A stretch of DNA of 64,000 nt from positions 49,317-113,316 of IMG/VR virus record IMGVR_UViG_3300038968_000013, one strand, 5' to 3'. A program made the position numbers and the translations under genes. The notes under the pieces were generated by a model. The model saw nothing but the letters and a program-made list of their open reading frames with translations, did not search any database and was not told the origin of the DNA. This DNA comes from a virus (lineage: Duplodnaviria > Heunggongvirae > Uroviricota > Caudoviricetes). This document shows positions 31,774-59,421 of the stretch, one piece after another (the stretch's first letter is position 1; each line of letters opens with the position of its first letter).

Positions 31774-32383
31774 TGTAGGCGCAGAGAGGTCGATTCACGA
31801 ACAGAAACTCAAGGGGCTTCTTGTTGTAGATCGCCTGGTAGAACTCGCCGTCGTTCACGGACGAATTCACATTCCAGCGTTCGTCGCCCACTAGCTCGAT
31901 CGGGATGCAGCCTTGTGCCGTATCGATCCCGCATGGACGCACATTCTGTGGAGCCGCGATGCAGCGATACGAACCATCGAGGTTCACCTGATCGTAGAAG
32001 AAGCCCTTGCTAGGAAACTCCTTCATCAGGAACTGAATCGTCTCAAGATAGCTCGTGAGCATCAGGTTGTCGTCATCAAGGAAGCAGATGCGACACTTTC
32101 CACGCTCCGTGAGGTAGTCGAGGACTTCGTTACGCTCCGCTGTCCCGCCGATACCGGGAGACTCGCAGCGCGTCTTCACGACGTATATACCGTCTTCCCA
32201 TCCCTGCTTCTCTTGCAGGGGGATAAAGTGCGCATGCGACTGCCACCAGACAATCGGCAGCGTGCTCTTCTCCATCGACATGCGAATCGACTTCTCTACG
32301 AACGGCAGGTTGTCGAGGCGTGTTACCGGCGTGATGATGACGAACGGGTATTCAAACTCGTGTAGATTTACATCTAGCTTCAT
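31760..32383 (-). CDS. glycosyltransferase, GT-A fold
   Basis: Likely start MKLDVN. FVIITPVTR is a GT2-type N-terminus. CFLDDDN provides a DxD motif. Confidence 0.5.
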   Translation of the reverse strand: MKLDVNLHEFEYPFVIITPVTRLDNLPFVEKSIRMSMEKSTLPIVWWQSHAHFIPLQEKQGWEDGIYVVKTRCESPGIGGTAERNEVLDYLTERGKCRICFLDDDNLMLTSYLETIQFLMKEFPSKGFFYDQVNLDGSYRCIAAPQNVRPCGIDTAQGCIPIELVGDERWNVNSSVNDGEFYQAIYNKKPLEFLFVNRPLCAYNALV

Positions 32384-32880
32384 GGTTGCTTCTGCCCCTC
32401 GATCTTGCAGTGCCCCTCGATCCACCCTGAGGCAACCTCGCGCGTCTCCGGTGAGAGAGATTGGACTAGAGAGAACGGCGCAAACTCAGCGAGGATGATC
32501 ACCATGGCTGTAATTGCCGCTGCCTTATCTAGCGAGGCGTCTTCCGTTAGGATCTCAGCATGGGCCGCGAGCTTAAACATGTACCGCTCTGACAGCACAC
32601 AGCTTGGCGTGATGAATGCCGAGACACGCGCGACCGCAGGGTTGTTGAAGAATGTTGTGGACTCTTCGCCCCCAAGGTTGTTGCGCGCCGCTTCTTTCAC
32701 CATCCAGCGTTGGAAGAAATCCGAAGCGAGATACTTGACGTTCTCGTAAAAAACAGAGTCGAGATACTGACCTAGGTGGTCTTCCCCGGTGCCAGATCCT
32801 TGCGCAGATGGAAGCCATCCAACACTTGGCTCCATGCACCGACTCGCCGATTCGCTGAGACCACTGCCGCTAATCCACAT
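32380..32880 (-). CDS. hypothetical protein
   Basis: 166-aa ORF within the glycan island. No motif recognised. Confidence 0.3.
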   Translation of the reverse strand: MWISGSGLSESASRCMEPSVGWLPSAQGSGTGEDHLGQYLDSVFYENVKYLASDFFQRWMVKEAARNNLGGEESTTFFNNPAVARVSAFITPSCVLSERYMFKLAAHAEILTEDASLDKAAAITAMVIILAEFAPFSLVQSLSPETREVASGWIEGHCKIEGQKQP

Positions 32881-33386
32881 AGACCACCCTTACCCACGTA
32901 CGCTTTCGCGCCGAGCACCACTCCAGCTTGTAGAGTCGCAAAGTCACATACGCGTGCTTCCGCTCCTACAATGACACCTGACCCGATCATCACATGGCTG
33001 CCGAGTTCGGCACCGTCCATGATCAGGGCTCCAGGCATGACAATACTACCGACCCCGATCTTTGCTGAAGAGGCGATGACAGCCGTTGGCGCCTTCACGC
33101 TCCTGATCGGCCAAACCCGCTTCTCCTGACGGGCACTCAGCACAGGCGTAAGAGCCGCCGCGCGTTGCACCGGATCAGGATTCGTAAAGACCAGTTGCCC
33201 GGTGACGGGCATTTCCGCTAGCGCCTCGGTGAACCCGATGATGCGCAGCCCGTGAAACGTTGTCCCGATTTCGCCGTACCCGCGATCCGCGAGTACTTCA
33301 ATGTCCACCAACGGATTCGCATCCATCAGCAGATTTGCAACTGTGCGTGCTTCTTGGCTCGCTCCTACAAGAAAAACCTTCGACAA
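32772..33386 (-). CDS. sugar acetyltransferase, NeuD/PglD-like (left-handed beta-helix)
   Basis: N-terminal Rossmann-like MSKVFLVGAS... followed by hexapeptide-repeat stretches (IGVGSIVMPGALIMDGAELGSHVMIGSGVIVGAEARV). Confidence 0.6.
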   Translation of the reverse strand: MSKVFLVGASQEARTVANLLMDANPLVDIEVLADRGYGEIGTTFHGLRIIGFTEALAEMPVTGQLVFTNPDPVQRAAALTPVLSARQEKRVWPIRSVKAPTAVIASSAKIGVGSIVMPGALIMDGAELGSHVMIGSGVIVGAEARVCDFATLQAGVVLGAKAYVGKGGLCGLAAVVSANRRVGAWSQVLDGFHLRKDLAPGKTT

Positions 33387-35856: not shown

Positions 35857-36061
35857 TATTGTTCCAGTGCTGCTGTCTGTGGAGAGCATCCTGGTCCATC
35901 TGGGTGACGTACACCATTTCGACGGTCCATAGCTCTGCGTAGTTGTCTCCGGACATCGTAAGCTGCGCGCCTGAGTGAATACCACTCCGCATCGGCAGCC
36001 ACACGACGGCCCGCTCGTCTCCTTTACGGAGCATGACTTGTTTCATTCGTTGGTTGGTCAT
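35849..36061 (-). CDS. hypothetical protein
   Basis: 70-aa ORF with protein-like composition. Confidence 0.3.
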   Translation of the reverse strand: MTNQRMKQVMLRKGDERAVVWLPMRSGIHSGAQLTMSGDNYAELWTVEMVYVTQMDQDALHRQQHWNNNV

Positions 36062-36303
36062 AAGAAAGGTGCCCCTTGCAGTATTGCGCCTCCGGTTTCA
36101 GCCGTCGCTTACTCCTGCTAGTTTTGATAAGGAGGAGGGGCTAGCTCTAAAGATTCCCGTACTCGATACACCAGTCGTACGCGTCGCGGTGCTCTACACG
36201 ATCCTGCCAGTCTTTTGGCTTCTCGGTATAGCGACGTTCGCGGTAGGTGTTGCCCTTGCCGCAGACCGGACAGTAGGCATACGTGATGTGGTACCAGTGC
36301 GGC

Positions 36304-36660
36304 CTAGGCGTGGGCATAGATGGTTTCTTTCCAGGCGAAAGGTAGGTCGTAGACGAAGTGGTAACGTTGCTTCAGGATCTCGACCATGCGCTTCCTGCCA
36401 TCCTCGTTGATCGAGTGGCAGATCACCGACACGCCGAACTTTGCGACGTCAGGGTTCCCGATCATCCACTGCGCGAGACCGGTGCCGTCCATTTCCGTGC
36501 CGAGGTCGTGATCGAGCATGATCACGTCGTACGGAAACGACATCAGCAGCCGTTGCGCGTGGTAGGGATTCTTCGCGTAGTCCGTCTCGTGGTGTGGATT
36601 ATTCCACGAGTACTCTTTGAACCGCTCGACCTCATCGTCCACAAACAACACCCGCATCAC
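36304..36660 (-). CDS. orphan response-regulator receiver (REC/CheY-like) domain protein
   Basis: MMRVLFVDDE...YDVIMLDHDLG shows the acidic pocket and phospho-acceptor Asp context of REC domains. No output domain is present. Confidence 0.5.
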   Translation of the reverse strand: MMRVLFVDDEVERFKEYSWNNPHHETDYAKNPYHAQRLLMSFPYDVIMLDHDLGTEMDGTGLAQWMIGNPDVAKFGVSVICHSINEDGRKRMVEILKQRYHFVYDLPFAWKETIYAHA

Positions 36661-36944
36661 ACCACCCCGTACTCGATCTTCAGGTTCTCGTCGCGCATCA
36701 TGTCATCCACGCGCGCATCGATTGACTCGTACCCACGAAGCCGCGCCGCTGTTTCCATCCGTAGCCAAGTTTGGAATTGCTTACTCTTAGCCATGCGGAG
36801 AAACGCGAGGCGCTTGTTCTCGTGCTGAGAACGCGTATCCTGCGCCGTGCCTACAGCTCCGCTAAAGACGGTGGCGACACCGACAGGCTGAAGACGTCTT
36901 CTGCTTCTTCTGGCCACCGTGACCAGATCCACGGAAGAATTCAA
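36657..36944 (-). CDS. hypothetical protein
   Basis: 95-aa ORF. Confidence 0.25.
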   Translation of the reverse strand: MNSSVDLVTVARRSRRRLQPVGVATVFSGAVGTAQDTRSQHENKRLAFLRMAKSKQFQTWLRMETAARLRGYESIDARVDDMMRDENLKIEYGVV

Positions 36945-37092
36945 ACTCTAGGTCTTTCGACCCCACACTAAAAAGTAGCTCTTTCATGCTTAGTCCGTTG
37001 TTACTGCTACCGCGATGTCGATAATCGCCTCACCGAGGCAGAAGAACATTTCCGCCACCTCGATCAATCCTCGCCACACCCATCCGCCGCGC

Positions 37093-37347
37093 TTAGGCTT
37101 TTTCATCTTCCCAGACGATCTCGGTTGCCCCATCGTGCCCATGGATTGCTTCAAGCACAGAGATGGAGTCGTAGATTGCCACACAGCTGGTCGGCTTTAA
37201 CCAGCTGAGGGCGCATTTCCCGTTCGTGAATTCGATTCCTTCCGCAACGACACCAGTTCCCGATACTCCGGAGATATCTTCGTTGCGTTGAAGCCAGAAT
37301 CTCTTGTTGGTCACCTTAGGTTTGTTACTGGTTTTCGATCGCCCCAA
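37093..37347 (-). CDS. hypothetical protein
   Basis: 84-aa ORF. Confidence 0.25.
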   Translation of the reverse strand: MGRSKTSNKPKVTNKRFWLQRNEDISGVSGTGVVAEGIEFTNGKCALSWLKPTSCVAIYDSISVLEAIHGHDGATEIVWEDEKA

Positions 37348-37747
37348 GCGTTACCTCGATGGATGCTACCGTTGCCTCGGTGACACTGATACTCTCCGAG
37401 GTGCCCGTCAGTACTACGTCGTCCTTCGTCCAGGTGACGATGACAGCGCACATACCAGCCGCCTTGCCTACAAGCTTCGGTACACCCAGCTCGTCTACCA
37501 CTTCGCCTACGTTCGAATCGTTGACGGAGTAGGCAAGCGTCCCGCCATCAAGCGAAACCACCTTCCCTGCCGCCGACTTCCCTGTCACTACAACGGTGAC
37601 CTTCTGCTCTGTGCTGATTGTTGCCATAGGATATCCTTTGTCGTCTAAGAGTTTAACTACAATGTATGCCGGTTCTGCATATGCGCGCGCGATGATGATA
37701 AGACACAGCAGGAACAGGCATACGGCGAGCGCCACCAGTTCGAACAT
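37325..37747 (-). CDS. membrane-anchored Ig-like (Big_2-type) protein
   Basis: Likely start MFELVALAVCLFLLCLIIIARAYA (TM or signal sequence) followed by a beta-rich Ig-like region. Confidence 0.35.
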   Translation of the reverse strand: MFELVALAVCLFLLCLIIIARAYAEPAYIVVKLLDDKGYPMATISTEQKVTVVVTGKSAAGKVVSLDGGTLAYSVNDSNVGEVVDELGVPKLVGKAAGMCAVIVTWTKDDVVLTGTSESISVTEATVASIEVTLGAIENQ

Positions 37748-37917
37748 GTTAGTGGGCGCAGTTACGAAACACAGGGGCACCACCCCATGTGATCTGAGGT
37801 ACTACTCGCATACCCCACTCACGCTTGCACGAGGTGCAATAGCGGACCTGGCATGTGTAGCAGTACACAATCGATGGATGCAGACAGTGCCAGTGGGTGT
37901 GGGTATGGTGCTGATGG

Positions 37918-38211
37918 TTATGCGTATAGGTCATCGTCTTCTTCTAGTTCCTTTGCTAGCTCTGCAGGGATCTCTGGACCGATCTTCACGGGGAACCCTT
38001 CCGGTTCCCACTCAGGGAAGAGTACTTCGCCTACCATGCAGAAAAAGTTATGCAGCCATGCTGCGGGTGGGATGAGCCAGTCGTAGACGACGTTCGTTCC
38101 GCGAAGGAAGTTCTCGCCGTCCTTTTCCCCGAAGTAGCAGGGGATTCCGTAGAAGCTGGCGTAATTCTGATACCTGTATGTTCGTCTCAAGTGCGCTCCA
38201 CGACTCGCCAT
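37918..38211 (-). CDS. hypothetical protein
   Basis: 97 aa with an acidic C-terminus. Confidence 0.3.
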   Translation of the reverse strand: MASRGAHLRRTYRYQNYASFYGIPCYFGEKDGENFLRGTNVVYDWLIPPAAWLHNFFCMVGEVLFPEWEPEGFPVKIGPEIPAELAKELEEDDDLYA

Positions 38212-38484
38212 TTCTTGAGAAGGCGGTCGACCAGCTCCTGGACGGAGGTGGTATGGGTATTGACAAGGAATTCAACGAGTTCTACGTATGACGCGTCGCG
38301 GTGGAGGCACCAGAAAGACATAGGTTGTGTAGTATTTTCATCCATGTTCTACAATATGCCGTGTGCGTTCCGCACTACTACTCTCACCTATTTCCGGGGC
38401 TTGCGCAGATCAGAAGGTTCCGCTAGCTATTCATCATCACGAAAGGAGGACGGTATCGCCAGCACGCGAACCGTTACATGAACA

Positions 38485-38841
38485 ATGCCGAAAACCATCA
38501 CATTCACCGAACAGCAGCTGCTGACGCTTCTTCGGGGAATCGCACCACAGCGCCAGACTAAGCTTTCCGTGAAAGACCTCGTACGTCTTTCTGGAAGCGC
38601 CGACCCCAACCTTCAGCTGTCGATTCGCGAAGCCATTCGCGCGACGCTGGAGGAACACGGGGAGTTGAAGTCTCGCGACATCAACTACCATCTGAAGCGC
38701 GACAACCTGCCTCTCGCTACCGCATCCACAAACCTCCCTGCACTCATTCAAACCACCCTCGGAACGATGCAAGCGAACAAGGAAGTCGTCCGACGTGGAA
38801 AGCGTGGACGCTCGACCTACCGACTCGCGAAAGCAGCGTGA
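38485..38841 (+). CDS. hypothetical DNA-binding-like protein
   Basis: 118-aa plus-strand ORF that converges on the terminator at 38937..38973. Confidence 0.4.
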   Translation: MPKTITFTEQQLLTLLRGIAPQRQTKLSVKDLVRLSGSADPNLQLSIREAIRATLEEHGELKSRDINYHLKRDNLPLATASTNLPALIQTTLGTMQANKEVVRRGKRGRSTYRLAKAA

Positions 38842-38936
38842 AGGGGGCGCTTCGAGAGACATACTAGCACCCCCACCACCACCCGTCAAGAAAAAGCGTG
38901 TGCGTGGTCTCGCCCCCCGTGCTGCGCACAAGAAAA

Positions 38937-38973
38937 GGGCCGGAACCCATCAGGGAACCGGCCCTTTCTCTTT
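38937..38973. terminator. bidirectional rho-independent terminator
   Basis: GGGCCGG(38937-43)...CCGGCCC(38958-64) stem with an inner CCC/GGG pair, followed by TTTCTCTTT. It is preceded by AAAAG, so it also works for the minus strand. Confidence 0.55.
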
Positions 38974-39318
38974 ACCGCTCCACATTGCCACCCCACCGGG
39001 CTGCAGCCGGGTGTGTGGACTGGACCCTCGTCATGGTCACACCGTCCGCGTTTCAACCCCTTCGCACTCGATCCTTCTCAGCTACTCCTTAGGACTCACC
39101 TTTTAAGGGCTTTGTTGGCCCTGCCAGCTGCAGGCTGGCGATGACCATCCCGTTTGGCTCCAGACCGAACACTACTCTTGGTGCGGATTTCCCTAGGCGT
39201 CCCTAGGGCATTGCTGTTGAAGGTCCTGCCCCCGTAGGGCTGCAACTAGCTCACCGGGCGACCTAGGCGCCTAGTACCCGTGTATTTTGCCGTGCAGCTG
39301 CCTACGGGGCACAGCTCG

Positions 39319-39542
39319 TTACGCCGCAGCCTGCGCCTTGGCTTCCTTCTTCTGCTTGTCGAACTCGTCGCAGCCGTCCGTGAGCATTGCCATCACGACG
39401 TCACGCTTGGTCACGCCCTGCGGACAGGACTTCGCGATCTTGCTGATGCGATCGAACAACGCGGGCGGGATCTTCACCGCCAGCAGCTTGTCTTCGTTCT
39501 CTTTCGCTTCCTTCTTCGTGAGCAGTTCCTTGATGTTCTTCA
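39319..39542 (-). CDS. ribbon-helix-helix (Arc/CopG-like) regulator, putative
   Basis: GTG start with a GGGAGG RBS 7 nt upstream. KLLAVKIPPALFDRISKIAK...VTKRDVVMAML fits an RHH beta-alpha-alpha layout. Confidence 0.4.
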
Positions 39543-39731
39543 CCGTGGTTCCTCCCTTTCGTGAGTGAGCTGCAACAGCTGACCACCGTACTACTACAGG
39601 TATGCTCAACTGTCAAGCCCAGAAAGCATGCCCCGGTCACTTCGTTTGCGACCGTCCAGGTGCGACGTACTCTCGCATACGTGAAACCATCTGTCAAGAG
39701 CGAAGAATTCATCAGCCATTCACCAGGGCAC

Positions 39732-39760
39732 TTGACACGGTGCGCCATATCCGCTAAAAT
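39732..39760 (+). promoter_or_regulatory. sigma70-like promoter TTGACA-N17-TAAAAT
   Basis: TTGACA at 39732-37, 17-nt spacer, TAAAAT at 39755-60. It lies upstream of the small operon ending at the terminator 40548..40599. Confidence 0.55.
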
Positions 39761-39791
39761 GGCTGCGAATACAGAGAAAAGGAGAATACAC

Positions 39792-39887
39792 ATGACGAAG
39801 ACAGACTCAATGGGAATCTTCGGAGTCGCATGGCTCGTCGTGCTGCTTGCATTCACGGTTTCTGCACGGTATGCTTTCCTTCCGTAA
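39792..39887 (+). CDS. small membrane peptide (31 aa)
   Basis: AGGAG RBS 8 nt before the ATG. MTKTDSMGIFGVAWLVVLLAFTVSARYAFLP has a single TM segment. It is below the track's length cut-off. Confidence 0.35.
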   Translation: MTKTDSMGIFGVAWLVVLLAFTVSARYAFLP

Positions 39888-39899
39888 GGAGGAAGCACC

Positions 39900-40196
39900 G
39901 TGCGATTCAAGACCCGCCCAAAAAAGACCAAGGCACTCCGGGCGCACGCAAAGCTCCGTGCGCTCCAACGCTACGACCTCGATCTCACCGCGAAGATGCG
40001 GCGCAAGATCATCGAGGAGATTCAGCAGCAACGTAGCATCCATCTCGAAACGCAATCCAATCGCGTCTCGATACACCTCGTCGAGATAGAGCAGCGCGAT
40101 ATCCGTGTGGTATACGACCGCACGCGCAAAGAAATCATTACCGTGCTGCCCCCGGAGAACGAGCATGCTCAAGTGGCTACCTGTCACGCTCTGTGA
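39900..40196 (+). CDS. hypothetical protein
   Basis: GTG start with an AAGGAGG RBS 7 nt upstream. 98 aa. Confidence 0.4.
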   Translation: MRFKTRPKKTKALRAHAKLRALQRYDLDLTAKMRRKIIEEIQQQRSIHLETQSNRVSIHLVEIEQRDIRVVYDRTRKEIITVLPPENEHAQVATCHAL

Positions 40197-40512
40197 TCCG
40201 CCACACTCCGTGTCGAGACCGAATCAGGTCGTCGATCTCGCAAACGACTTCCACGAAACCGGCTGGTATGGTCCCGCGCTCGTTGGGTATCCGCTCAACG
40301 GACGCATCCAGCTCCTGACCGGTTCGCATCGGTACGCTGCAGCTCGTCTCAGCGAGAAGGATCAGCTCCCCGTCTACTTGGTCTCACTCGCCGAGGTCGA
40401 GGCATTCTGGGGCAACGTCGGCCAATGGAAGCGCATTCTGAACAGCGCACCGCACGTCATCGCAGGATTCCCCGGCAAGCACTTTGTCGACCGTAAAGCG
40501 ATTCAACGCTAA
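40165..40512 (+). CDS. ParB-like (sulfiredoxin-fold) domain protein
   Basis: Likely start MLKWLP. LLTGSHRYAAARL resembles the ParB GxxR box. Confidence 0.45.
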   Translation: MLKWLPVTLCDPPHSVSRPNQVVDLANDFHETGWYGPALVGYPLNGRIQLLTGSHRYAAARLSEKDQLPVYLVSLAEVEAFWGNVGQWKRILNSAPHVIAGFPGKHFVDRKAIQR

Positions 40513-40547
40513 GGACGGACTCACCGGTCCCTGGCCAAAACTAGAAA

Positions 40548-40599
40548 AGCCTATCTCTCATTGGTGCGGTGGTTTCGCTACCAGAGAGATAGGCTTTTT
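40548..40599. terminator. bidirectional rho-independent terminator (long composite hairpin)
   Basis: AAAAGCCTATCTCTC ... GAGAGATAGGCTTTTT. The stem is 12 bp and encloses a structured 24-nt loop. It is flanked by an A-run and a T-run. Confidence 0.6.
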
Positions 40600-40798
40600 G
40601 CGTATTGGTACAGAAATAACGTACTACACGATGTGCGATCGATGCTACGCGGTATTCGCGTTGTCCTTGCTGTAGCACTCGTAGCAGCGCACCGGGTACC
40701 CACACCAACGGTGTGTCAGTGTTCCACACCGACAGCATCGTTTACGGCGGTACCCATAGCGACAGTCTTCGCAGGTTGCTGGATTGTGTTTCATAGAG

Positions 40799-40872
40799 CG
40801 GAACCGAGGGGGATCGAACCCCTAACCTTTCCCGTGACAGGGGAGCGTTCTAGCCAATTGAACTACGGCTCC
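40799..40872 (-). tRNA. tRNA-Asp (GTC)
   Basis: Manual fold. Acceptor GGAGCCG/CGGTTCC, D-arm GTTC..GAAC, anticodon loop CTGTCAC and T-arm AGGGG TTCGATC CCCCT. Confidence 0.6.
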
Positions 40873-40877
40873 GTGAG

Positions 40878-40951
40878 AGTCGATACCCGGATTCGAACCG
40901 GGACCGCTAGTTTGGAAGACTAGCATGCTAACCGTTGAACACTACATCGAC
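40878..40951 (-). tRNA. tRNA-Gly (TCC), probable
   Basis: Manual fold. Acceptor GTCGATG/TATCGAC, anticodon stem CTAGT/ACTAG with loop CTTCCAA, and T-arm CCCGG TTCGAAT CCGGG. The D-stem is weak, and the 5' end overlaps the ORF 40928..41182. Confidence 0.45.
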
Positions 40952-41182
40952 ATTGATATGACCGCCATCTGCGGTGGTATAGGGGGCGCAGGTTCTGATG
41001 TGGAACCCCTCGACCGTCTTGCCACTTCCCTCATGTATTGTACGGAAGTACTTCTGAGCCGCTTGGCAAGCACTGAGGACGTCTAGCGCCACTACCCTTA
41101 CGATTCGATTAACCGTCGAAGGCATACGACTGTCCGTAACCCTTGCCTCACACTCCACCACGTATACCTTCATTGTCATCAC
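40928..41182 (-). CDS. hypothetical protein (doubtful 3' end)
   Basis: 84-aa ORF. Its last 24 nt overlap the predicted tRNA-Gly. Confidence 0.25.
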   Translation of the reverse strand: MMTMKVYVVECEARVTDSRMPSTVNRIVRVVALDVLSACQAAQKYFRTIHEGSGKTVEGFHIRTCAPYTTADGGHINVDVVFNG

Positions 41183-41397
41183 TCAATCAACCCCGCTGCC
41201 TTACACCGCGCCTCGAATTCCCGCGACAAAATGCGGCATCCCTCCAGCTGTCGCTTCACGAACTCCCTATCCTCGATCAACCTAGCCGTTGGACATGGGC
41301 TGAGATTCGCACACCCACGGCAGAACTTCGGATTGGATGGCATCGCCTGATGGTACCCCCTGAGTACCTTCAACTCCTCGTCCGTGATCAAATCCAT
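41179..41397 (-). CDS. hypothetical Cys-containing small protein
   Basis: 72-aa ORF downstream of the minus-strand promoter at 41517..41546. Confidence 0.35.
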   Translation of the reverse strand: MDLITDEELKVLRGYHQAMPSNPKFCRGCANLSPCPTARLIEDREFVKRQLEGCRILSREFEARCKAAGLIE

Positions 41398-41516
41398 CCA
41401 CCCCTCTTCTGCAGGCTAGCTCGCTTGACATGGATTTGGGCAACCATGTCGTATTCAGGATTCGCTTCTGAGCTATCTGCCTCGTCGCCCGAAGTACAAG
41501 CGAATCGGCAAAAGGC

Positions 41517-41546
41517 ATTATACGCACACCCTCAAGAAGGCGTCAA
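41517..41546 (-). promoter_or_regulatory. sigma70-like promoter TTGACG-N18-TATAAT (minus strand)
   Basis: Reverse complement of 41517..41546 reads TTGACGccttcttgagggtgtgcgTATAAT. Confidence 0.55.
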
Positions 41547-41614
41547 GGTGTTTTTTAGCAGCAATTCCGCGTATTTAGGCCCAACCTCGCGGAATCGTTG
41601 AGGAAAATCGATTT

Positions 41615-41626
41615 TTCCCTAGGGAA
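41615..41626. promoter_or_regulatory. perfect 12-bp palindrome TTCCCTAGGGAA (candidate operator, copy 1)
   Basis: Exact palindrome followed by TCAAC. An identical copy lies 105 bp away. Confidence 0.45.
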
Positions 41627-41719
41627 TCAACGTGAGGGGCGCATCCCAAGAAGACGTGAGAAAAAACTCACCCCTTTTCCCTATATGACCGGGAAAAGTT
41701 CCCTATGCCTGCGTAAGTA

Positions 41720-41731
41720 TTCCCTAGGGAA
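41720..41731. promoter_or_regulatory. perfect 12-bp palindrome TTCCCTAGGGAA (candidate operator, copy 2)
   Basis: Identical to copy 1 and also followed by TCAAC. A CTTTTCCC/GGGAAAAG inverted repeat lies between the two copies. Confidence 0.45.
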
Positions 41732-41938
41732 TCAACAGGTCTGTTTTGTGGTCCCGTGCTTTAGGGCTTTGTTCATGGCGCGTTCAGACTCTCGAATCAA
41801 GGCACCCACAGCCTTGCCTATACGTTCGCGCTGAGCGTAGGTGAACGGATCGTTCGTCTCTACGCTGGCGAGTAGGAGCACGAGGCTCTGTACGTGAGTC
41901 TCGACCTTTTCTAGGTAGTCTCTGACGGTACGTGCCAT
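41732..41938 (-). CDS. hypothetical protein
   Basis: 68-aa ORF. Confidence 0.3.
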   Translation of the reverse strand: MARTVRDYLEKVETHVQSLVLLLASVETNDPFTYAQRERIGKAVGALIRESERAMNKALKHGTTKQTC

Positions 41939-42150
41939 AGCGTTACCGGATGCTTCGGGAAGAGGACGAACGACTGCAGCGGGAACTGTAGCTCAGTATC
42001 CCAAGCGACGGGCGTACCATTGACCACCACAGCCTTATTGTTGAACCATCGGCGTAGTTCGGACCCAGAAGCCTCGCCACGTTTCGCGCCCTCACGAGTT
42101 TGAAAGTGACAGACCTCATGCAGTTCCTTTAAGAAGTCGAGCGCCCTCAT
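41911..42150 (-). CDS. hypothetical protein
   Basis: 79-aa ORF. Confidence 0.3.
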   Translation of the reverse strand: MRALDFLKELHEVCHFQTREGAKRGEASGSELRRWFNNKAVVVNGTPVAWDTELQFPLQSFVLFPKHPVTLWHVPSETT

Positions 42151-42223
42151 TCCTCGAATGTACCATAAAAGCTAGCTGGGTACAATAGGTGGAGAAGGTT
42201 ACTTGTATGCCGGGTTCCCGGTT

Positions 42224-42502
42224 TTACTGCCAGACCGGCTTCGACATGTCGAGGATCTGTCCGAACTGATTGCGACAGTCTGCCAGACATGCCGGGGCCT
42301 TCTCGTGTTTGAACCGGATGATCTTCGCGACCCGTGCCGCCTGTGCCGCCAGCGCCACGCTGTTGGCGCGAGAGCAGAGATCCACCAGATACCGACATTC
42401 CGCTTCCTCGTTCGGAAGCGTCGCCGCCACCGTCTCTGGGTCTGCCTGTGCCGTTGCTGCCGTGAAGAGCACCATTGCTGCCGCGAGTATGATCTGCCTC
42501 AT
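42224..42502 (-). CDS. secreted 92-aa four-Cys protein (paralog A)
   Basis: Signal peptide MRQIILAAAMVLFTAATAQA. Near-identical to 45127..45405. Confidence 0.5.
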   Translation of the reverse strand: MRQIILAAAMVLFTAATAQADPETVAATLPNEEAECRYLVDLCSRANSVALAAQAARVAKIIRFKHEKAPACLADCRNQFGQILDMSKPVWQ

Positions 42503-42630
42503 GATGGTTCCTCCCTTTCGTGCGTCTTACTTCATTCCGAAGTACTGCTTCAACCGCTCCGGAAGCAGAATGATTGAATACCCGATGTAGAGCACTAAGC
42601 CAAGAGCAAACCAGCGAGCCTTGCGGACCA

Positions 42631-42867
42631 TCACACTCCCCACTCGTACCCGTCGTGAGAGTGCGCGGCTAATGCCTGGTACATGTTGTCGAAAAACTTC
42701 TTCCACGCAATGCGCCTACCCTCCGTAAGACCTATCGTGTCTATGGTCTCACGTACCCGTTCTTCGCTAAACAGATGTAGCAAGTGCCCTAGTTCCTTCT
42801 CGGACTGCACCGTGATGCTGATAGTGATGTCCTGAAAGGGGGTTTCAGGTGCGCGACGGAACTTCAT
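42631..42867 (-). CDS. hypothetical protein
   Basis: Likely start MKFRRAPETPF within the track ORF 42631..42942. Confidence 0.3.
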   Translation of the reverse strand: MKFRRAPETPFQDITISITVQSEKELGHLLHLFSEERVRETIDTIGLTEGRRIAWKKFFDNMYQALAAHSHDGYEWGV

Positions 42868-43223
42868 ACCAACACCCACGCCAGGAAGAAGTAGGTCAGC
42901 GCATGAAGGTACTGATCGAACCCCAGCAAGATCCAGAACCACTCGCTATTGTTCGGCAGTAAGCCGTAATGCGCACCAACGTTCATCTTGGCCCAATCGA
43001 TGTGGTAGTGAGCTACCCCGTCGACCACCATCGACAACATAGCGAGCGTCACGCTATCGCAGCACGAGAGCACAACCCAGAACGTTGCCAGCGCATGCAG
43101 CCCCGCGTGGAGAATTCCGCCAGGGTGACCGTACGTACCCTTATTGGTGTACATGTACGGATGCGCCTGCATCGGAAAGTCCACGATGAAATGCTTCGTG
43201 AATAGCCAGAAGAGTAGCGTCAT
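42864..43223 (-). CDS. polytopic membrane protein, His-rich
   Basis: 119 aa with 3-4 hydrophobic helices. Confidence 0.4.
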   Translation of the reverse strand: MTLLFWLFTKHFIVDFPMQAHPYMYTNKGTYGHPGGILHAGLHALATFWVVLSCCDSVTLAMLSMVVDGVAHYHIDWAKMNVGAHYGLLPNNSEWFWILLGFDQYLHALTYFFLAWVLV

Positions 43224-43954
43224 TAGCCCTCCATCCCCATGTCATACCCCGGATGATCCGGAATCAGGCTACCGAGATATGCTCGGTCCTGCGTGAAAAC
43301 CGGAGGACACCCATTTGTTCCCCAACCATGCGACAGGCACTCGCGCCAATACTGCTGCACACGACCGCGACGAAAGCCTTCCGGATGATTGTTCCAGTTG
43401 TCACCCTTCGCGTGAATCATGTCGTGTAGGTCGGGCGACTTCTTCCCGTGCAGTTCCTTGTGCGAGTAGTAGTGCTGCGCCAGCATCTGCAGGGAATTGC
43501 GTTCCGCATCCTGCTGCCGCCAGATGAAGTAGTTCATGACCTCGGTGCGATCTGGGATCACGAACACGCGCGCATCGAAGACAGCCGCCATGTCGACGCC
43601 CCAGCACCGGTTGAACGCGACCGATGCCGTTGCCGCCGCGATCGAGCACATTTTCTGCAGGTTGCCGTCGAACCACGCGTCGGTCTGAATCGAGTCGAAG
43701 TCCGTCAGGAGTAGCGAGATTTCGTCCGACTGCGTGAAGGCGAATTGGGTACCCTGAATGCTTTTGCAGAGCGCCAACGCGGTGACGTCCATCGCGTTCA
43801 TGAAGCCCTTATCGTATGGCTTCTCCATGTGACGAGTCAGCGTGTGAAACGCTTTCCCGTCGACACGGATGACGGTGTAGGTGCGCCGAGGAAGGGAAAT
43901 GCGGTACCGATCTTCGTACTGCTCCTTCATGCGATCACCTAGCGAGTCAGGCAT
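43223..43954 (-). CDS. tRNA-His guanylyltransferase (Thg1-like protein)
   Basis: YEDRYRISLPRRTYTVIRVDGKAFH, EKPYDKGFMNAMDVTALAL and AFTQSDEISLLL align with the Thg1 family blocks (..VVRLDGRGFH.., ..KPNDERALNLMN.., ..YGYSDEYSFVF). Confidence 0.65.
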   Translation of the reverse strand: MPDSLGDRMKEQYEDRYRISLPRRTYTVIRVDGKAFHTLTRHMEKPYDKGFMNAMDVTALALCKSIQGTQFAFTQSDEISLLLTDFDSIQTDAWFDGNLQKMCSIAAATASVAFNRCWGVDMAAVFDARVFVIPDRTEVMNYFIWRQQDAERNSLQMLAQHYYSHKELHGKKSPDLHDMIHAKGDNWNNHPEGFRRGRVQQYWRECLSHGWGTNGCPPVFTQDRAYLGSLIPDHPGYDMGMEG

Positions 43955-44249
43955 CCATTACCTCTTCCGCAACGTCGAACAGGTGGAAAACCAGCGGGCT
44001 GCCATCCTCGATGAACTGCACCGTTCCGATGAACTTCGAGACGTCAGGAACGTTGCAATGAAACCAGCCGGTTCCGAGGATCTTCACGATCCGATGTACC
44101 TTCTCCGCTTCTGGATCGACCCTCGCCCAGAGCACGATATCGTTGCCCTGCGCTCCGACCGAAAGAAGCTGCGCCCCCTTCGGCATAGTGATCGCCGAAT
44201 CTTGCAGAAACGGATTCGGGACCGGAACGATGTACTTGAAAATGACCAC
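43947..44249 (-). CDS. hypothetical protein
   Basis: 100-aa ORF. Confidence 0.35.
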   Translation of the reverse strand: MVIFKYIVPVPNPFLQDSAITMPKGAQLLSVGAQGNDIVLWARVDPEAEKVHRIVKILGTGWFHCNVPDVSKFIGTVQFIEDGSPLVFHLFDVAEEVMDA

Positions 44250-44250
44250 G

Positions 44251-44571
44251 CTACTCCCTCCCCTTCGTACGCTCTCCGATGACGCCGCCTTTCTTCACGA
44301 GCATGAAGCTCATTCCGTACGGCGACGCGAACCGGATGCCGTCCTGAGGATGACCGTGCGGCGGGATGCCAAGAATGCTGCGGCGCCCACCACAGGTGAA
44401 ATCCTTCCCGACGAACTCGATGTAGTCTTCGGGAAGACCACCAACCTCGGCGGGATCGGCCCACCGAATGTCGACCAGCTCAGTCTCCGCGAGCGCAGGA
44501 GAATCGCAATCCTCCTCGATCAGCCAGCCACCGATCCAGTCTGCTTTCTTGTCGATCAGATCCTGCCACAT
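44251..44571 (-). CDS. hypothetical protein
   Basis: Likely start MWQDLIDKK within the track ORF 44251..44733. Confidence 0.3.
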   Translation of the reverse strand: MWQDLIDKKADWIGGWLIEEDCDSPALAETELVDIRWADPAEVGGLPEDYIEFVGKDFTCGGRRSILGIPPHGHPQDGIRFASPYGMSFMLVKKGGVIGERTKGRE

Positions 44572-44602
44572 CAGTGCATCCTCCCTGATTCTTTCCTGAG
44601 TG

Positions 44603-44935
44603 TCAAGCCTTGAAGCAGTCGGGCACCGGAACGTCCGTCTCGTTCCCGTCGTCGTCCGGAGGGCCCACGAGAAACACGTCGCCCGCCAGGTAATCGCCAG
44701 GACGGAGATTGCGTCCCGCCATCTGCGTCGCACGGCGGTTGAGCGGCAACCCTTCCAGCTTTCCCTCTTCGTTACAGAAGAGAGAAACCTCGTGCCGAGT
44801 CCCCGCGAGGTTGAGCGTCATGGGAACCAGCTCGATGTAGCCACCGACCACCTTCTGCATAGCGTCGAGACCGTTCAGCTCTTCGAACCGCACCGGCTGG
44901 GTTTCGTCTGCCGGGATGATCATTGCCTTTGCCAT
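44603..44935 (-). CDS. DUF3846-like protein
   Basis: MAKAMIIPADETQPVRFEELNGLDAMQKVVGGYIE resembles the DUF3846 N-terminus common in phages and plasmids. Confidence 0.35.
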   Translation of the reverse strand: MAKAMIIPADETQPVRFEELNGLDAMQKVVGGYIELVPMTLNLAGTRHEVSLFCNEEGKLEGLPLNRRATQMAGRNLRPGDYLAGDVFLVGPPDDDGNETDVPVPDCFKA

Positions 44936-45126
44936 CGCGTCACACCTCCTTAGTGAATGACTGATGCTTTACTAGCGGTACCAGGGCTTCGTGTCAAGCC
45001 CCTTGATCAATCCGTAGAATCCGCCATCGCCACCGGCCCAACGGAAGATATGTCCCGTGCGTGTGTCGAGCGTATCTCCGCTGTTGAAGTACACCTTCGT
45101 GCCGATGATCATGTAGATGCCGAGGT

Positions 45127-45405
45127 TCACTTCCAGACCGGGGCGTTCATGTCGAGGATCTGGCCGAAGTTATTCCTGCAGTCGGCCAGGCACGCGGGAG
45201 CCTTCTCGTGCTTAAATCGAATAACCTTCGCGACTCGTGCCGCCTGTGCCGCGAGCGCCACCGAATTCGCGCGAGAGCACAGGTCCACCAGAAACTTGCA
45301 CTCTGCTTCCTCGTTCGGAAGTACCGCAGCTACCGTTTCGGGATCTGCATGCGCCTTCGATGCCAAACTGATGGCGAGAGCTACCGCCAGAATGATCTTT
45401 TTCAT
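45127..45405 (-). CDS. secreted 92-aa four-Cys protein (paralog B)
   Basis: Start MKKIILAVALAISLASKAHA inside the track ORF 45127..45621. The mature parts are ~90% identical to paralog A. Confidence 0.5.
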   Translation of the reverse strand: MKKIILAVALAISLASKAHADPETVAAVLPNEEAECKFLVDLCSRANSVALAAQAARVAKVIRFKHEKAPACLADCRNNFGQILDMNAPVWK

Positions 45406-45788
45406 CGCGTCTCCAATTCTTGTGTGATTTTGTTGATCCACTCTTGAAGGGAACGTCCCTCGTGATCTACCGGTTCCTCTGGTGCTTCCCCTGCTGCCAC
45501 TAACTGCTGACTGTACCATGTAAGGTACACTTGCTGAGACTGCAACTGCTCGCGAAGGATGATCAGGGAGCGCCCGTCGATCTTCTGGAGCCCGTACTTC
45601 GTGATCCAGCAGACCGGGCACTTACAAGAGAGCTTCTGAAAGACTTCTTCAGGCTTTCGCATTCCACAGACCTCGACCGCCCACTGTGCCGCATTGCAGA
45701 CGCGGTACACTTCGTCCTGGATAGGACCGTGAGCTGCAGCTGCGGACACGTACATGATGTCGTCGAGAACGGGCCAGCCTTCACTCAT
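45402..45788 (-). CDS. hypothetical Cys-rich protein
   Basis: Likely start MSEGWPVLDD. Stop and start overlap (ATGA) with paralog B. Confidence 0.35.
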   Translation of the reverse strand: MSEGWPVLDDIMYVSAAAAHGPIQDEVYRVCNAAQWAVEVCGMRKPEEVFQKLSCKCPVCWITKYGLQKIDGRSLIILREQLQSQQVYLTWYSQQLVAAGEAPEEPVDHEGRSLQEWINKITQELETR

Positions 45789-45982
45789 CGCTGCGCCTCG
45801 ATTGCGCCCAGCACTGCACGACACGCGGCTTCCAATTGCTCTCGTGCTGTTGCGTCCATTTCCGACAGCACCCGATCGGCCTGGGTATGGCCATCGGTAC
45901 GCATGAAGGCGATCAGAACGTCCTCGAAATCACGCCCGACTGCATGAATCCTGCTGACGATACCAAGAACCCCTCGCGGCAT
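45785..45982 (-). CDS. hypothetical protein
   Basis: 65-aa ORF. Confidence 0.25.
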   Translation of the reverse strand: MPRGVLGIVSRIHAVGRDFEDVLIAFMRTDGHTQADRVLSEMDATAREQLEAACRAVLGAIEAQR

Positions 45983-46185
45983 AACCCTTACCTCCCTTTA
46001 TTGTACGTTTAGGCTAGAGCGTTTACGGGGAGCCTTGCGCGACACAATGGAGACACGCGACCACTCACTCCCACTCCGATGTTGACATACGAAGTTGGCA
46101 GCTGCCGAGACCGAACGAAACGGACCTACTCGGCTAAACTGCGCTGCCTTTGAAACGACGAACCACTGTCTGTCGAATGTCATTG

Positions 46186-46431
46186 TCAGATAACCCGAAG
46201 GTGTTCGCAGAAAACGTACAGATTGTGCTTCACTGACGGGTGGTCCATCTTCACCGTTGCGCATTTCCCGTCGAGAGCAATCACGGTACCGTACTTCGCG
46301 CCGCGCATCCACAGGTCGCAAGCCGGATGCAACTCGATTCGATTCCCTACAGTAACCGTCTTTCCTTGGTAGTCCGTCATAGTCACCCCTCCAGTGCCCA
46401 AATCCATATCGACCTTCTCGGATTCTGTCAA
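46186..46431 (-). CDS. hypothetical protein
   Basis: 81-aa ORF, the last minus-strand gene before the repeat region. Confidence 0.3.
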   Translation of the reverse strand: MTESEKVDMDLGTGGVTMTDYQGKTVTVGNRIELHPACDLWMRGAKYGTVIALDGKCATVKMDHPSVKHNLYVFCEHLRVI

Positions 46432-46439
46432 GCTTTTTC

Positions 46440-47980
46440 TGGATGGATTTCTGATGATTCGTTATTTGTTCAACTTGGTAGCTAACTTAGGCGACTTGCC
46501 AGAGACGCTACTTTGGGCTGGATCAATTTGAAACTGGGTGGGTTATACATATGCGGGACTTTGGGGAGGAGCTATTCAGGGAAACGTGAAATATTATAGC
46601 GCGGGGGTACACTACAGAATAAGCTAACTCATTGATCCGACTGGGAAAACCAAATTGCCCAATGTTTTCGCGGGGTTAGGGGCTGGACAAGATCCGTGCC
46701 AGCCGATTGGCACGGGACTTGCTAGCGATCGTTGGCATGCGGATTATCCCTGCTAGATCGCGGGGTTACGCGCTTCCCCAAAACATGAGGGGTATCGCGG
46801 ACTTAGGGCACCTAATGAAATCAGGTACTTAGCGCCAATGTCCGATAATGTTCTATTATGTCAACTCGCCACTCCAATTAAATCAGGTACTTAGTTAGGC
46901 TCGCCGAATATTATTAGGTCGCGGGGCCGTTACGCCTAACGCGCTTTTCGGCCAGGTGTGGCATAATCCTTGCTAGAACCGACGCGTAAGGCGTTGGCAT
47001 GATTCTTGCAGGGTCGGGGATCGCTAGGGTGGCCCCCCCCTGTATCATTTCGTTACACCCTGTCTCATTTTAACACATATCGACCCATCCCTTAGTGCGT
47101 CATTATGTCGCACCTACCTTAGGCGAAAGTCGCTTCCTTAACAATTCCGGGCACTTACCCGAGCTGGCACGATTCTCGCGTATCTGATTCTTCTTTACTT
47201 TCGCGCACTTAGGTCTGGTATGGTACTAGTGACATAGGCGAAAGTAGGGCAGATTTTGACGGCGTGCGTCATTTTTCGCTAAACTTTCGCTTTTCTGGAC
47301 CATGCGCTAATCGAGCGGAAACCGGCATAGGCAACGCGTCAAGGTCGGTTGATACATTGGCATGGTCTCAGGGTTGCGCGTGTCCTAGGGCAATTGTGGA
47401 CGTTCTAGACCTACGTTCCGAATGACATAGGTTGTTTCGGTTGCTATCTATTAAGGGCGGTTCCCGGTTCGCCCGGTTGGTTCCCGTTCCCGTGGCCTCG
47501 GCGCGGTTGGCCACGGTTCCCGGTTCGCTCATGGTTCCCGGTTGAATTGGCCACGGGTCGCGGTTGGTTTTCTGGGCTAGACGCGCGCCCGCTAGCGTCT
47601 AATCGGGCGCGAATTTTCCCGGTTGGTAGCGGATTATGCGCTAAGTACCCGGAAACATTAGAAAAGAAAAATTACGATTGACGCATTTTTTTTGTTGACA
47701 ACCGCTTGCGGTTTCCTTAGGATCGGTTCCGTTGATAGCGCAACCCCGCATGACGGCGGTTCGCGGATTCCGTAGGGTGCAAGGTTGTTCGCCGTTTCGC
47801 ACGCGGTTCAACGGAACGTGCGTTAAGGTTCGCGGCGCGCTAATCCGTAGGCTTTGACGTCGGAACGTTGCCCGGTTCCGATACCATGCCACATAGGGCG
47901 GAAACATTGGGAACGCGGTTGACCCTCACTGCTAAACCGCGCGGAATTAACCGCGCCGTTTACCTAGGAGGGTTTCACCA
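46440..47980. repeat. 1.5-kb repeat-dense non-coding region (candidate origin / partition / control region)
   Basis: No credible ORF. Direct repeats TTGGCA(C/T)G..TGCTAG x4 (46700-47030), AAATCAGGTACTTAG x2 (46815, 46882), TAGGCGAAAGT x2, and CGGTTCC/GGTTCCCGGTT x>8 (47460-47900). Palindrome CCGTGCCAGCCGATTGGCACGG (46693-46716). Also contains a C8 tract (47035-42) and T8 tracts. Confidence 0.6.
47695..47723 (+). promoter_or_regulatory. sigma70-like promoter TTGACA-N17-TAGGAT preceded by an A/T-rich UP-like tract
   Basis: TTGACA at 47695-700, 17-nt spacer, TAGGAT at 47718-23. It points into the plus-strand module. Confidence 0.45.
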
Positions 47981-48153
47981 TGGCAAAGGTTGTCGGCAAG
48001 GTTGTTTTGCGTAACGGTAAGGTTGCAACGCACGGCGGTTGCGCGTTGCTGCGTCGTTCCCTTTCCGGTCTCACGGTTCGTGTCATGACGTCGCCGAACA
48101 TTCGGCGCGAAACCGTCATGGCGCACGCGTTGCGGTTGGCGGTTGCCCGGTAG
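47980..48153 (+). CDS. small hypothetical protein (57 aa)
   Basis: AGGAGG RBS 8 nt before the ATG at 47980. Translates MAKVVGKVVLRNGKVATHGGC... and is below the track's length cut-off. Confidence 0.3.
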   Translation: MAKVVGKVVLRNGKVATHGGCALLRRSLSGLTVRVMTSPNIRRETVMAHALRLAVAR

Positions 48154-48264
48154 GTAGCAAGTAGGACGCTCGCGCGGTTCGGAGCGTCTTACATGATATC
48201 AACCGGTCAAGGTTGGTTTCCCGTGTCGCATGGTGCGGCATAGTATCTAGGAAAGGTTCGAACA

Positions 48265-49188
48265 ATGGCGCACGAATTGGAAATGAACAACGGCGAAGCT
48301 TCCATGATCTATTCTGGCGAGCTTCCGTGGCATGGTCTCGGTTTTCGGATTCCGCGAAACGTTCCGTGGGAAATTGGTTTCGTGAAATGCGGCGCCGATT
48401 TTCATGTTCAGCGTGCGAAGCTTCAAACGGAAACCGGTTCGCACGTTCCGGGTCATTTCGCGTTGCAACGCACGGATACCGGGCGCGTGCTTTCCGTGGT
48501 CTCGGATCGGTATTCGGTGATTCAAAACGTGGACGCGTTCCGGTTGTTCGGCGAAGCATTCGGAAGCGCGGCGGTTTTGCATACTGCCGGGGTTTTGCGG
48601 CATGGCGCGGAAGTTTGGGGGTTGGCGGAATTGCCGCCCATGGCCATCGTCTCGCGCGAGATTCATCGTCGTTTTTTGCTGGTCACTACTGGCCACGGTT
48701 CGCGCAAAGCGTTGAAAGTGATTCCGACCGCAACGCGCGTCGTTTGCGCGAATACTCTCGCGGTTGCGCTCGGCGGTTCCACGGATGGAATTACCATCCG
48801 GCATTCCGGCGACGTCAACGCGAAGCTTGCCGCCGCTGGCGAAGCGTTGAACGCGGCATATGCCGAATTCAACGCCTATGCCGAAACGGCGGAACGGTTG
48901 GCAAATAAGACGTTGACCAATGGCGAGCGAACCGAATTGCTCGAAACGGTTTTCGGCGACAATTCGGAAGCGATCGACCGTTGCAAATTCCTTGCGGTTC
49001 ACGGCAAGGGTCAACGCGGTTCTGATATCGTCGGGAGCGCATACGCGTTGCTGGCGGGAATCACGGATTACGTAGACCACGAAACCCGTGCGGCGCGTTC
49101 CCGGAACGTCAACCGTCGTTTCGCGGTTGCGACGCTTGGCGCGGGCGCGCGCGTCAAGTCAAAAGCGTTGCAATTGCTCGCGGCGTAG
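48265..49188 (+). CDS. DUF932-like phage/plasmid protein
   Basis: 307 aa. N-terminal MAHELEMNNGEASMIYSGELPWHGLG is typical of the DUF932 family found in ICEs and phages. Confidence 0.5.
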   Translation: MAHELEMNNGEASMIYSGELPWHGLGFRIPRNVPWEIGFVKCGADFHVQRAKLQTETGSHVPGHFALQRTDTGRVLSVVSDRYSVIQNVDAFRLFGEAFGSAAVLHTAGVLRHGAEVWGLAELPPMAIVSREIHRRFLLVTTGHGSRKALKVIPTATRVVCANTLAVALGGSTDGITIRHSGDVNAKLAAAGEALNAAYAEFNAYAETAERLANKTLTNGERTELLETVFGDNSEAIDRCKFLAVHGKGQRGSDIVGSAYALLAGITDYVDHETRAARSRNVNRRFAVATLGAGARVKSKALQLLAA

Positions 49189-55796: not shown

Positions 55797-55822
55797 ACCA
55801 TCCTCCCCTTATTGTACTCGGT

Positions 55823-59246: not shown

Positions 59247-59328
59247 GAAAAATGACCCCGAAGTCATGCTAATTATGCATGAATACTCAGCCTCGATGAG
59301 CATCGGGGAGAGAAGCTGTTTCAAAAAG

Positions 59329-59411: not shown

Positions 59412-59421
59412 AAAAAGAAAG

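Follow-up and report, generated by a model that had tools for sequence, protein, structure and literature searches.

A novel tailed phage encodes a bacterial-type Thg1-like protein predicted to repair tRNA 5′ ends

What does a tailed phage do with an enzyme of the Thg1 family, and is such an enzyme truly a tRNA-His guanylyltransferase? The question is raised by a gene on 64,000 nucleotides (nt) of Caudoviricetes DNA, positions 49,317 to 113,316 of IMG/VR record IMGVR_UViG_3300038968_000013, a stretch that was analysed as a whole and is called the window here. The original prediction, made from the sequence alone, placed a phage-encoded Thg1-like tRNA-His guanylyltransferase at 43223-43954. Judged by its sequence, the product is a bacterial-type Thg1-like protein (TLP) of the Thg1 superfamily. 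We consider it likely that the gene encodes a catalytically competent TLP, a template-dependent 3′-5′ nucleotidyltransferase that would restore tRNA 5′ ends and serve the upkeep of the tRNA pool during infection. Family membership, clade, fold, an intact active site and phage origin could each be established directly, as could the absence of a linked tRNA-His gene.

The gene and its putative ribosome-binding motif, which was read from the sequence, are laid out as follows.
43223..43954, minus strand: TLP coding sequence, a single long open reading frame (ORF) with an ATG start, 243 amino acids (aa)
43964-43961, minus strand: GAGG Shine-Dalgarno motif, 6 nt 5′ of the TLP ATG and within the 3′-terminal part of the upstream gene
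The ORF has exactly the coordinates first proposed for it. Its N-terminus, MxDxLGDRMK, is common to the homologues in a 32-sequence alignment, consisting of the phage TLP and 31 of its closest database relatives, and for that reason the annotated ATG is supported as the start. The G+C content at codon positions 1, 2 and 3 is 0.58, 0.41 and 0.75, and neighbouring genes are alike. Promoter and terminator consensus counts were no higher than in shuffled controls, therefore we claim no transcription unit boundaries.

The search with a hidden Markov model that the original prediction had proposed gave a clear answer, and the outcome that would have refuted the prediction, the lack of a significant Thg1 match, did not occur. 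The Pfam Thg1 profile, PF04446, matched the protein over profile positions 3-130 of 130 with an E-value of 3.5e-28; at 98.6 bits the match exceeds the gathering score of 29.2. The PHROG 4717 profile, named "tRNA-His guanylyltransferase", matched with an E-value of 3.7e-79. NCBIfam had no model matching the protein. The three Thg1 blocks that had been recognised by eye correspond to invariant columns of the alignment (R30-x-D32-G33; Q75-S76-D77-E78; and F126-D127-x-R129 ... W145-R146-Q147), and their conservation is far above chance. Among sequences in the PDB, the best match was BtTLP from Bacillus thuringiensis (4kgk; E 5.8e-52, query residues 3-230) at 179.9 bits, followed by MaTLP from Methanosarcina acetivorans at 58.4, Candida Thg1 at 50.2, the yeast enzyme at 40.6 and the human enzyme at 35.7. 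Ranking by Foldseek gave the same order, with BtTLP ahead of MaTLP and the eukaryotic enzymes last.

Structure prediction, the second check that had been suggested, agreed with the family assignment. An AlphaFold2 (AF2) model built on the 32-sequence alignment had a mean predicted local distance difference test score (pLDDT) of 88.3 and a predicted TM-score (pTM) of 0.86. When it was compared with the PDB using Foldseek, all 32 matches with E ≤ 0.001 were Thg1 or TLP structures. BtTLP came first (E 3.5e-24), and the model superposes on 4kgm and 4kgk with TM-scores of 0.82-0.88.

We then asked whether the residues needed for catalysis are present, taking their roles from the BtTLP structure paper (PMC3701042) and transferring them to the phage protein by alignment. 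The carboxylates D30, D75 and E76 of BtTLP (D29, D76 and E77 of human hTHG1) correspond to D32, D77 and E78, which are predicted to be catalytic. The binding side chains pair, BtTLP first, as E12/E14, R16/R18, R28/R30, H35/H37, T38/T40, K43/K45, S74/S76, K99/K101, R131/R129 and R147/R146. Every mapped side-chain residue of catalysis or nucleotide binding is thus identical in the two proteins, and the sole differences at mapped positions are H33 to Ala35, a main-chain contact only, and L49 to Phe51. In the 32-sequence alignment E14, R18, R30, D32, S76, D77, E78, K101, R129 and R146 are invariant, and H37 and M157 nearly so; T40 and K45 vary, with R as the consensus at position 45. Position 157 is informative about the clade: it is Met, matching the purine-stacking M158 at the activation site of BtTLP (RNSLQMLAQ in the phage protein, KNSISMVAQ in BtTLP), and not the eukaryotic Asn (N161 in ScThg1, N158 in hTHG1) on which adenylylation by the yeast and human enzymes critically depends (PMC3701042). 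Toward the C-terminus, the model has β-hairpin strands at 198-203 and 210-214, preceded by the invariant R196 and G197. The sequence alignment with MaTLP 5axk stops at query residue 199, so the equivalent of MaTLP R215 could not be mapped confidently. By these comparisons the active site is intact, the gene as a whole is apparently intact, and the enzyme is apparently active.

The mechanism of the phage protein is inferred from close homology with BtTLP and MaTLP; its enzymatic activity, its substrates and its role in infection are likewise inferred. In the BtTLP biochemical study (PMC3061083), the enzyme prefers 5′-truncated tRNAs over full-length tRNA-His by 5-160-fold, adds any Watson-Crick-templated nucleotide and acts on tRNAs besides tRNA-His. 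A kinetic preference of this kind is known only for BtTLP and MaTLP. MaTLP binds the acceptor stem and elbow, leaves the anticodon untouched and stops once the acceptor stem is full length (PMC4820378); its flexible β-hairpin (residues 198-215) contacts the tRNA elbow and measures acceptor-stem length. The reaction consists of activation of the 5′ end by ATP or GTP, followed by attack of the 3′-OH of a templated nucleoside triphosphate (NTP) (PMC6471195, PMC4820378). We envisage that the phage TLP would likewise grip the acceptor stem and elbow of a tRNA and leave its anticodon unread. The 5′-monophosphate of a shortened tRNA would be activated with ATP or GTP at a two-metal site formed by D32 and D77, with K45 and S76, and the 3′-OH of an incoming NTP, held by Watson-Crick pairing to the 3′ strand of the acceptor stem, would attack the activated end. 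The missing nucleotide would be joined in the 3′-5′ direction, and the cycle would repeat until the acceptor stem reached full length. In the phage, this activity would most likely mend host or phage tRNAs with mis-processed or nibbled 5′ ends, possibly produced by host nucleases, in a role analogous to that of phage CCA-adding enzymes and RNA ligases. A role in tRNA maintenance agrees with earlier comparative-genomic proposals (PMC2904730, PMC7824862). Because the active site is intact and membership of the TLP clade is clear, template-dependent tRNA 5′-end repair is the best-supported explanation of the gene.

Candidate substrates are present on the same DNA, where ARAGORN and Rfam identified three tRNA genes.
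40798..40951, minus strand: tRNA-Gly(UCC) and tRNA-Asp(GUC), called by ARAGORN, Rfam tRNA 53.8 and 62 bits, 2.3 kb downstream of the TLP gene
59328-59411, minus strand: tRNA-Leu(UAG), Rfam 45 bits, looks genuine, with a G1-U72 top pair, in the middle of a Y-RNA-like array
The tRNA-Gly and tRNA-Asp are possible substrates of the TLP. Each of the three has a fully paired acceptor stem, counting G-U pairs, so they present no 5′ mismatches requiring editing, and nothing points to a need for 5′ editing of the sort found in protist mitochondria. As a separate observation, a 112-kb IMG/VR contig (locus L013) carries at 7359-7784 a phage-encoded transfer-messenger RNA called by ARAGORN, with tag peptide ANNAGVTVANSVAGFVRSIKGAFVAQPQVVMA, 2.2 kb upstream of its TLP gene, and also has tRNA-Leu and tRNA-Arg.

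Several points weigh against the repair model. The C-terminal Pfam domain, Thg1C, is weak in the phage protein (E 0.011, under the cut-off), and the AF2 model is confident to about residue 230. Beyond closely related contigs, no neighbouring gene family is conserved across 24 related loci and three cultured phages. Among about 70 window ORFs there was no Pfam match to a polynucleotide kinase, RNA ligase, Macro, CCA-adding or RtcB family; therefore no local repair operon anchors the proposed role. We know of no nuclease in the phage's host that removes 5′ nucleotides from tRNAs. The physiological substrate is known for no bacterial or phage TLP (PMC6471195). Lastly, only part of the genome (64 kb) is in view, and a tRNA-His gene may lie elsewhere.

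This last point bears on the main rival, in which the TLP adds G-1 opposite C73 to host tRNA-His, or to a phage tRNA-His encoded outside the window, and so enables charging by histidyl-tRNA synthetase (HisRS). We judge this unlikely, and several observations speak to it. The name of PHROG 4717 and most of the 40 phage annotations listed favour it. Bacterial TLPs do add templated G-1 to C73-bearing tRNA-His, and BtTLP weakly complements a yeast thg1 deletion (PMC3061083). For tRNA-His, MaTLP also has a second way of binding, which depends on the anticodon (PMC4820378). However, genuine G-1 addition has two things against it: no tRNA-His is linked to the gene, and position 157 is Met, as in BtTLP, in place of the Asn critical in yeast and human Thg1. 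No tRNA-His was found in the 64-kb window with ARAGORN or Rfam, where tRNA-Asp, tRNA-Gly and tRNA-Leu were the only tRNAs. ARAGORN likewise found no tRNA-His within 10 kb of the TLP gene in 23 related metagenomic loci, only three of which had any tRNA there, and the 40 kb viewed around the TLP gene of Rhodococcus phage Weasels2 has none either. The hosts of the TLP-bearing Caulobacter phages have tRNA-His that naturally lacks G-1. In most bacteria G-1 is encoded in the genome, and the kinetics of BtTLP favour repair over addition at position -1 (PMC3061083). The name in the original prediction is therefore right as to the Thg1 family and probably does not hold as to tRNA-His: the protein belongs to the bacterial TLP clade, no tRNA-His accompanies it in the window and, because of that clade membership, 5′-end repair is the better-supported activity. 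We regard "tRNA-His guanylyltransferase" as essentially an inherited name for the phage TLP, which is probably no dedicated tRNA-His G-1 enzyme.

The remaining substrates to be weighed come from the most notable other feature of the window, a Ro60 gene with an array of Y-RNA-like tRNA mimics, 17 kb from the TLP gene.
61164-62777, minus strand: Ro60/Rsr gene; TROVE E 2.2e-42, vWA_Ro60 E 8.5e-49, NCBIfam Rsr 558 bits, below the cut-off of 900
60384-61010, minus strand: 209-aa ORF between Ro60 and the Y-like RNAs, with a faint match to the C-terminal half of RlmN/Cfr only
60286-60355, minus strand: weak tRNA match in the array
60167-60235, minus strand: weak tRNA match in the array
60115-60214, minus strand: Rfam YrlA match, sub-threshold, 26 bits
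59123-59234, minus strand: Rfam YrlA match, sub-threshold, 36 bits
58806-58901, minus strand: Rfam YrlA match, sub-threshold, 40 bits
The order on the minus strand is Ro60, then the 209-aa ORF, then the Y-RNA-like array interleaved with tRNA-Leu. Within 59194-60307 (1.1 kb) the T-arm motif GGTTCRANTCC occurs six times, out of seven in the window against 0.43 expected, and several of these have a GAGCCGAM motif 35-60 nt upstream. The match of the 209-aa ORF to the radical-SAM RNA methyltransferases RlmN and Cfr (E 2e-7 to 5e-6) is far under the family cut-offs, and the ORF may be a truncated or repurposed RNA-binding module; a plus-strand ORF at 60453-61127 overlaps it as an alternative reading. 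Homologues of Ro60 occur in 356 phage records, mostly of actinophages, where Ro60 with YrlA-like RNA is known, and the number of tandem modules here looks high.

The other gene of RNA-repair type in the window encodes a cREC domain protein.
36307-36657, minus strand: cREC_REC protein, PF20274 E 5.4e-14, a cyclic-phosphate-processing receiver domain; distance to the TLP gene 6.5 kb
A cREC_REC gene recurs in one related locus (L002), where the TLP gene is 2 kb away. A 73-aa ORF at 37093-37314 (minus strand) has the label "Acb5" (PF26761) in a public index, which was not reproduced with local Pfam.

These genes allow a more specific form of the repair model, one of counter-defence. Here the TLP would rebuild 5′ acceptor-strand nucleotides of tRNAs, or of the Ro60-bound Y-RNA-like mimics, after a host nuclease of a kind not yet described has trimmed tRNA 5′ ends. 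It would do so as part of a dispersed RNA-repair kit in a mid-sized phage, comprising the TLP, Ro60 with its Y-like RNA array and the cREC phosphoesterase. We think this quite improbable. Were it true, it would be the first case of a prokaryotic or viral TLP with an identified physiological substrate.

A further possibility is that the substrates are not tRNAs, and that the TLP extends or repairs the 5′ ends of the Ro60-bound Y-RNA-like mimics, or those of further phage transcripts. The same window does encode Ro60, followed downstream by at least three sub-threshold YrlA-like elements and, in 1.1 kb, the six T-arm motifs. What TLPs recognise is the acceptor stem together with the elbow, which are features of tRNA mimics (PMC4820378), and DdiTLP4 of Dictyostelium acts on non-tRNA substrates (PMC6471195). 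On the other hand, the two loci are 17 kb apart, and in 24 related loci no homologue of Ro60 came up within 10 kb of the TLP gene. The carriers also overlap little, Ro60 phages being mostly actinophages and TLP phages mostly those of Bacillus, Prevotella and Caulobacter. Action of a TLP on Y-RNA-like RNAs is also without biochemical precedent. We find this more speculative reading improbable.

Finally, it is scarcely credible that the gene is an inactive or decaying passenger from horizontal transfer with no function in the phage: its neighbourhood is variable and its third-position G+C of 0.75 is somewhat over that of the phage structural genes (~0.55-0.68), but the frame is full length with a good ribosome-binding site, all mapped catalytic residues are intact in a confident model, an independent assembly holds a 99.99% identical copy, and the nearest relatives, 55-67% identical, sit on phage-like contigs, which argues for a long-maintained phage lineage of TLPs.

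Tailed-phage genes place the carrier, which is a novel tailed phage, and bear out the claim that the TLP is phage-encoded.
20698-23397, minus strand: head protease or scaffold-like protein and major head protein, family matches
23663-25957, minus strand: portal, family match
25972-27441, minus strand: large terminase, family match
The large terminase shares at most 33% identity with that of any cultured phage, and a megablast search with 16 kb of the window returned no match; the carrier thus lacks a close relative in culture and is unrelated to the phages with annotated TLPs. The independent copy mentioned above is a 10.5-kb contig from ENA sample ERZ27277020, which is 99.99% identical to window positions 36024-46522 and encodes an identical TLP.

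Besides that identical copy, the nearest relatives of the TLP that are on long contigs sit amid phage genes, including holin, rIIB, family A DNA polymerase and HNH endonuclease genes. The family is large, with 5,719 clusters at 50% identity having E ≤ 1e-3, 1,317 of them at E ≤ 1e-30, and at least 8,000 relatives at E ≤ 1e-10 in a 90%-identity database (8,000 of the 8,000 scored). In IMG/VR, 20 further viral loci have a TLP at 43-58% identity. A tblastn search of cultured phages found a homologue in 164 of 50,697 records (0.3%), all below 60% identity, with phages of Bacillus (46), Prevotella (15), Caulobacter (13) and Mycobacterium (11) as the main carriers; most of the 40 matches listed are already annotated as tRNA-His guanylyltransferase. 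Such genes had been called rare in phages, and as a matter of frequency they are. As novelty the claim fails, for the family has its own PHROG, is already annotated and has been discussed in print since 2010-2013: a paper of 2010 already remarked on caudovirus homologues of Thg1 (PMC2904730), and gp143 of Bacillus phage Bc431v3 was singled out as an unusual gene in 2013 (PMC3601020). A survey in 2021 then described Thg1 as sporadic in jumbo phages, as a 5′-end restoration enzyme (PMC7824862). The gene is one more, fairly divergent member of a large known family, with no more than 67% identity to any other public sequence, and phage copies of it are no novelty.

The TLP gene belongs to a series of small genes on the minus strand whose stop and start codons overlap.
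44603-44935, minus strand: DUF3846 gene
between the DUF3846 and DUF7352 genes, minus strand: 106-aa ORF
43947..44249, minus strand: DUF7352 gene, 100 aa, PF24043 E 1.3e-17, phrog_3848; its stop overlaps the TLP start by 8 nt
42864..43223, minus strand: DUF3307 membrane protein gene, 119 aa, PF11750 E 7e-8, phrog_2470 "membrane protein" E 1.3e-16
The ATG of the DUF3307 gene shares one base with the TLP stop (TAATG), and further small ORFs follow downstream. We considered a TLP-DUF3307 pair and dropped it. DUF7352 did not adjoin the TLP gene in the 24 related loci or the three cultured phages, DUF3307 lay near a TLP gene in one other locus only (L002), and no TLP was found within 5 kb of DUF3307 in any of nine viral DUF3307 loci. 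Apart from that one locus, DUF7352, DUF3307 and DUF3846 are not TLP neighbours in those 24 metagenomic or viral loci and three cultured phages.

Other observations concern the wider surroundings of the gene. Two paralogous 92-aa proteins, at 42224-42502 and 45127-45405 (minus strand), flank the TLP gene block on both sides. In both, a hydrophobic stretch at the N-terminus looks like a signal peptide; the motif DPETVAA.LPNEEAEC..LVDLCSRANSVALAAQAARVAK is common to the two, and neither matched a family in Pfam or PHROGs. Three independent phage lineages, namely the window, Weasels2 and one IMG/VR group, encode a DUF932 protein at a distance of 1-4.3 kb from the TLP (48265-49188, plus strand, in the window; 21667-22776 in L026; 8040-8999 in L005, L007 and L021). 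This proximity could be due to chance, as mobile elements commonly carry DUF932. An SPFH/Band-7 protein (PF01145 E 1.9e-18; phrog_200) adjoins a 573-aa AAA ATPase at 54714-57544 (minus strand), and an SPFH homologue lies 2 kb from the TLP gene in another locus (L006). Between the divergent minus-strand early block and a plus-strand DUF932/GP88 block, about 1.8 kb (46400-48260) contain no ORF over 88 aa. This region has several short inverted repeats, along with four copies of a 19-nt repeat of the type GGTTCCCGGTT at 47451-47565, and may be an origin or regulatory region.

Sugar-modifying genes are unusually many for a phage and fall in two minus-strand stretches, 6051-7813 and 28991-33386.
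6051-7130, minus strand: family 4 glycosyltransferase (GT4), "conflict-system" type
7082-7813, minus strand: GT2 glycosyltransferase
28991-29848 and 30982-31773, minus strand: two GT9 heptosyltransferase-like proteins
30396-31004, minus strand: Methyltransf_24 protein
32775-33386, minus strand: hexapeptide acyltransferase
These genes suggest modification of glycans, DNA or the virion.

More generally, the phage TLP raises the question of what bacterial and phage TLPs act on in vivo. This example is mildly unusual in one respect only: the phage that carries it has few tRNAs, and neither an RNA ligase nor a kinase is recognisable in the 64 kb. With three ordinary tRNAs in view, a Ro60/Y-RNA-like locus and no tRNA-His nearby, the phage is a reasonable, not unique, system for asking whether phage TLPs repair tRNAs damaged in infection.

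Set beside known systems, the phage TLP is most distant from eukaryotic Thg1 (human 3OTB, Candida 3WBZ, yeast 5XOX), with which it shares the superfamily and the two-metal palm active site at only 36-50 bits. Those enzymes add a non-templated G-1 opposite A73 through recognition of the anticodon, and nothing in the context of the phage TLP points there. MaTLP (5AXK-5AXN) has the same fold (Foldseek E ~1e-15, TM-score 0.73-0.82, root-mean-square deviation 2.5-3.2 Å), whereas its likeness in sequence, at 58 bits, is far lower than that of BtTLP; it supplies the mechanistic model of repair that depends on the template and not on the anticodon. The annotated TLPs of other phages, such as Bacillus phage Bc431v3 gp143, Rhodococcus phage Weasels2 gp231 and those of Stenotrophomonas phages RAS14 and CM1 and Xanthomonas phage XacN1, are stand-alone genes of about 230-250 aa in non-structural regions and belong to PHROG 4717, like the present one. 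They are 42-48% identical to it, and no copy in a cultured phage exceeds 49%. Their surroundings differ: in Weasels2 the TLP lies among RtcB, a 2′-5′ RNA ligase, a phosphoesterase and seven non-His tRNAs, and in RAS14 an RnlA-type RNA ligase is 4 kb downstream, whereas the window has no detectable RNA ligase. The neighbours of the TLP in Staphylococcus phage PMBT8 are uninformative. The counterpart best matched in sequence and structure is BtTLP (4KGK/4KGM), which is encoded by a bacterium and not by a phage, and relative to which the phage protein has a 4-residue deletion after residue 120. The two are nearly equal in length, at 245 and 243 aa, are about 44% identical over 197 aligned residues, and share the catalytic carboxylates, the nucleotide-binding residues and the Met at the activation site.

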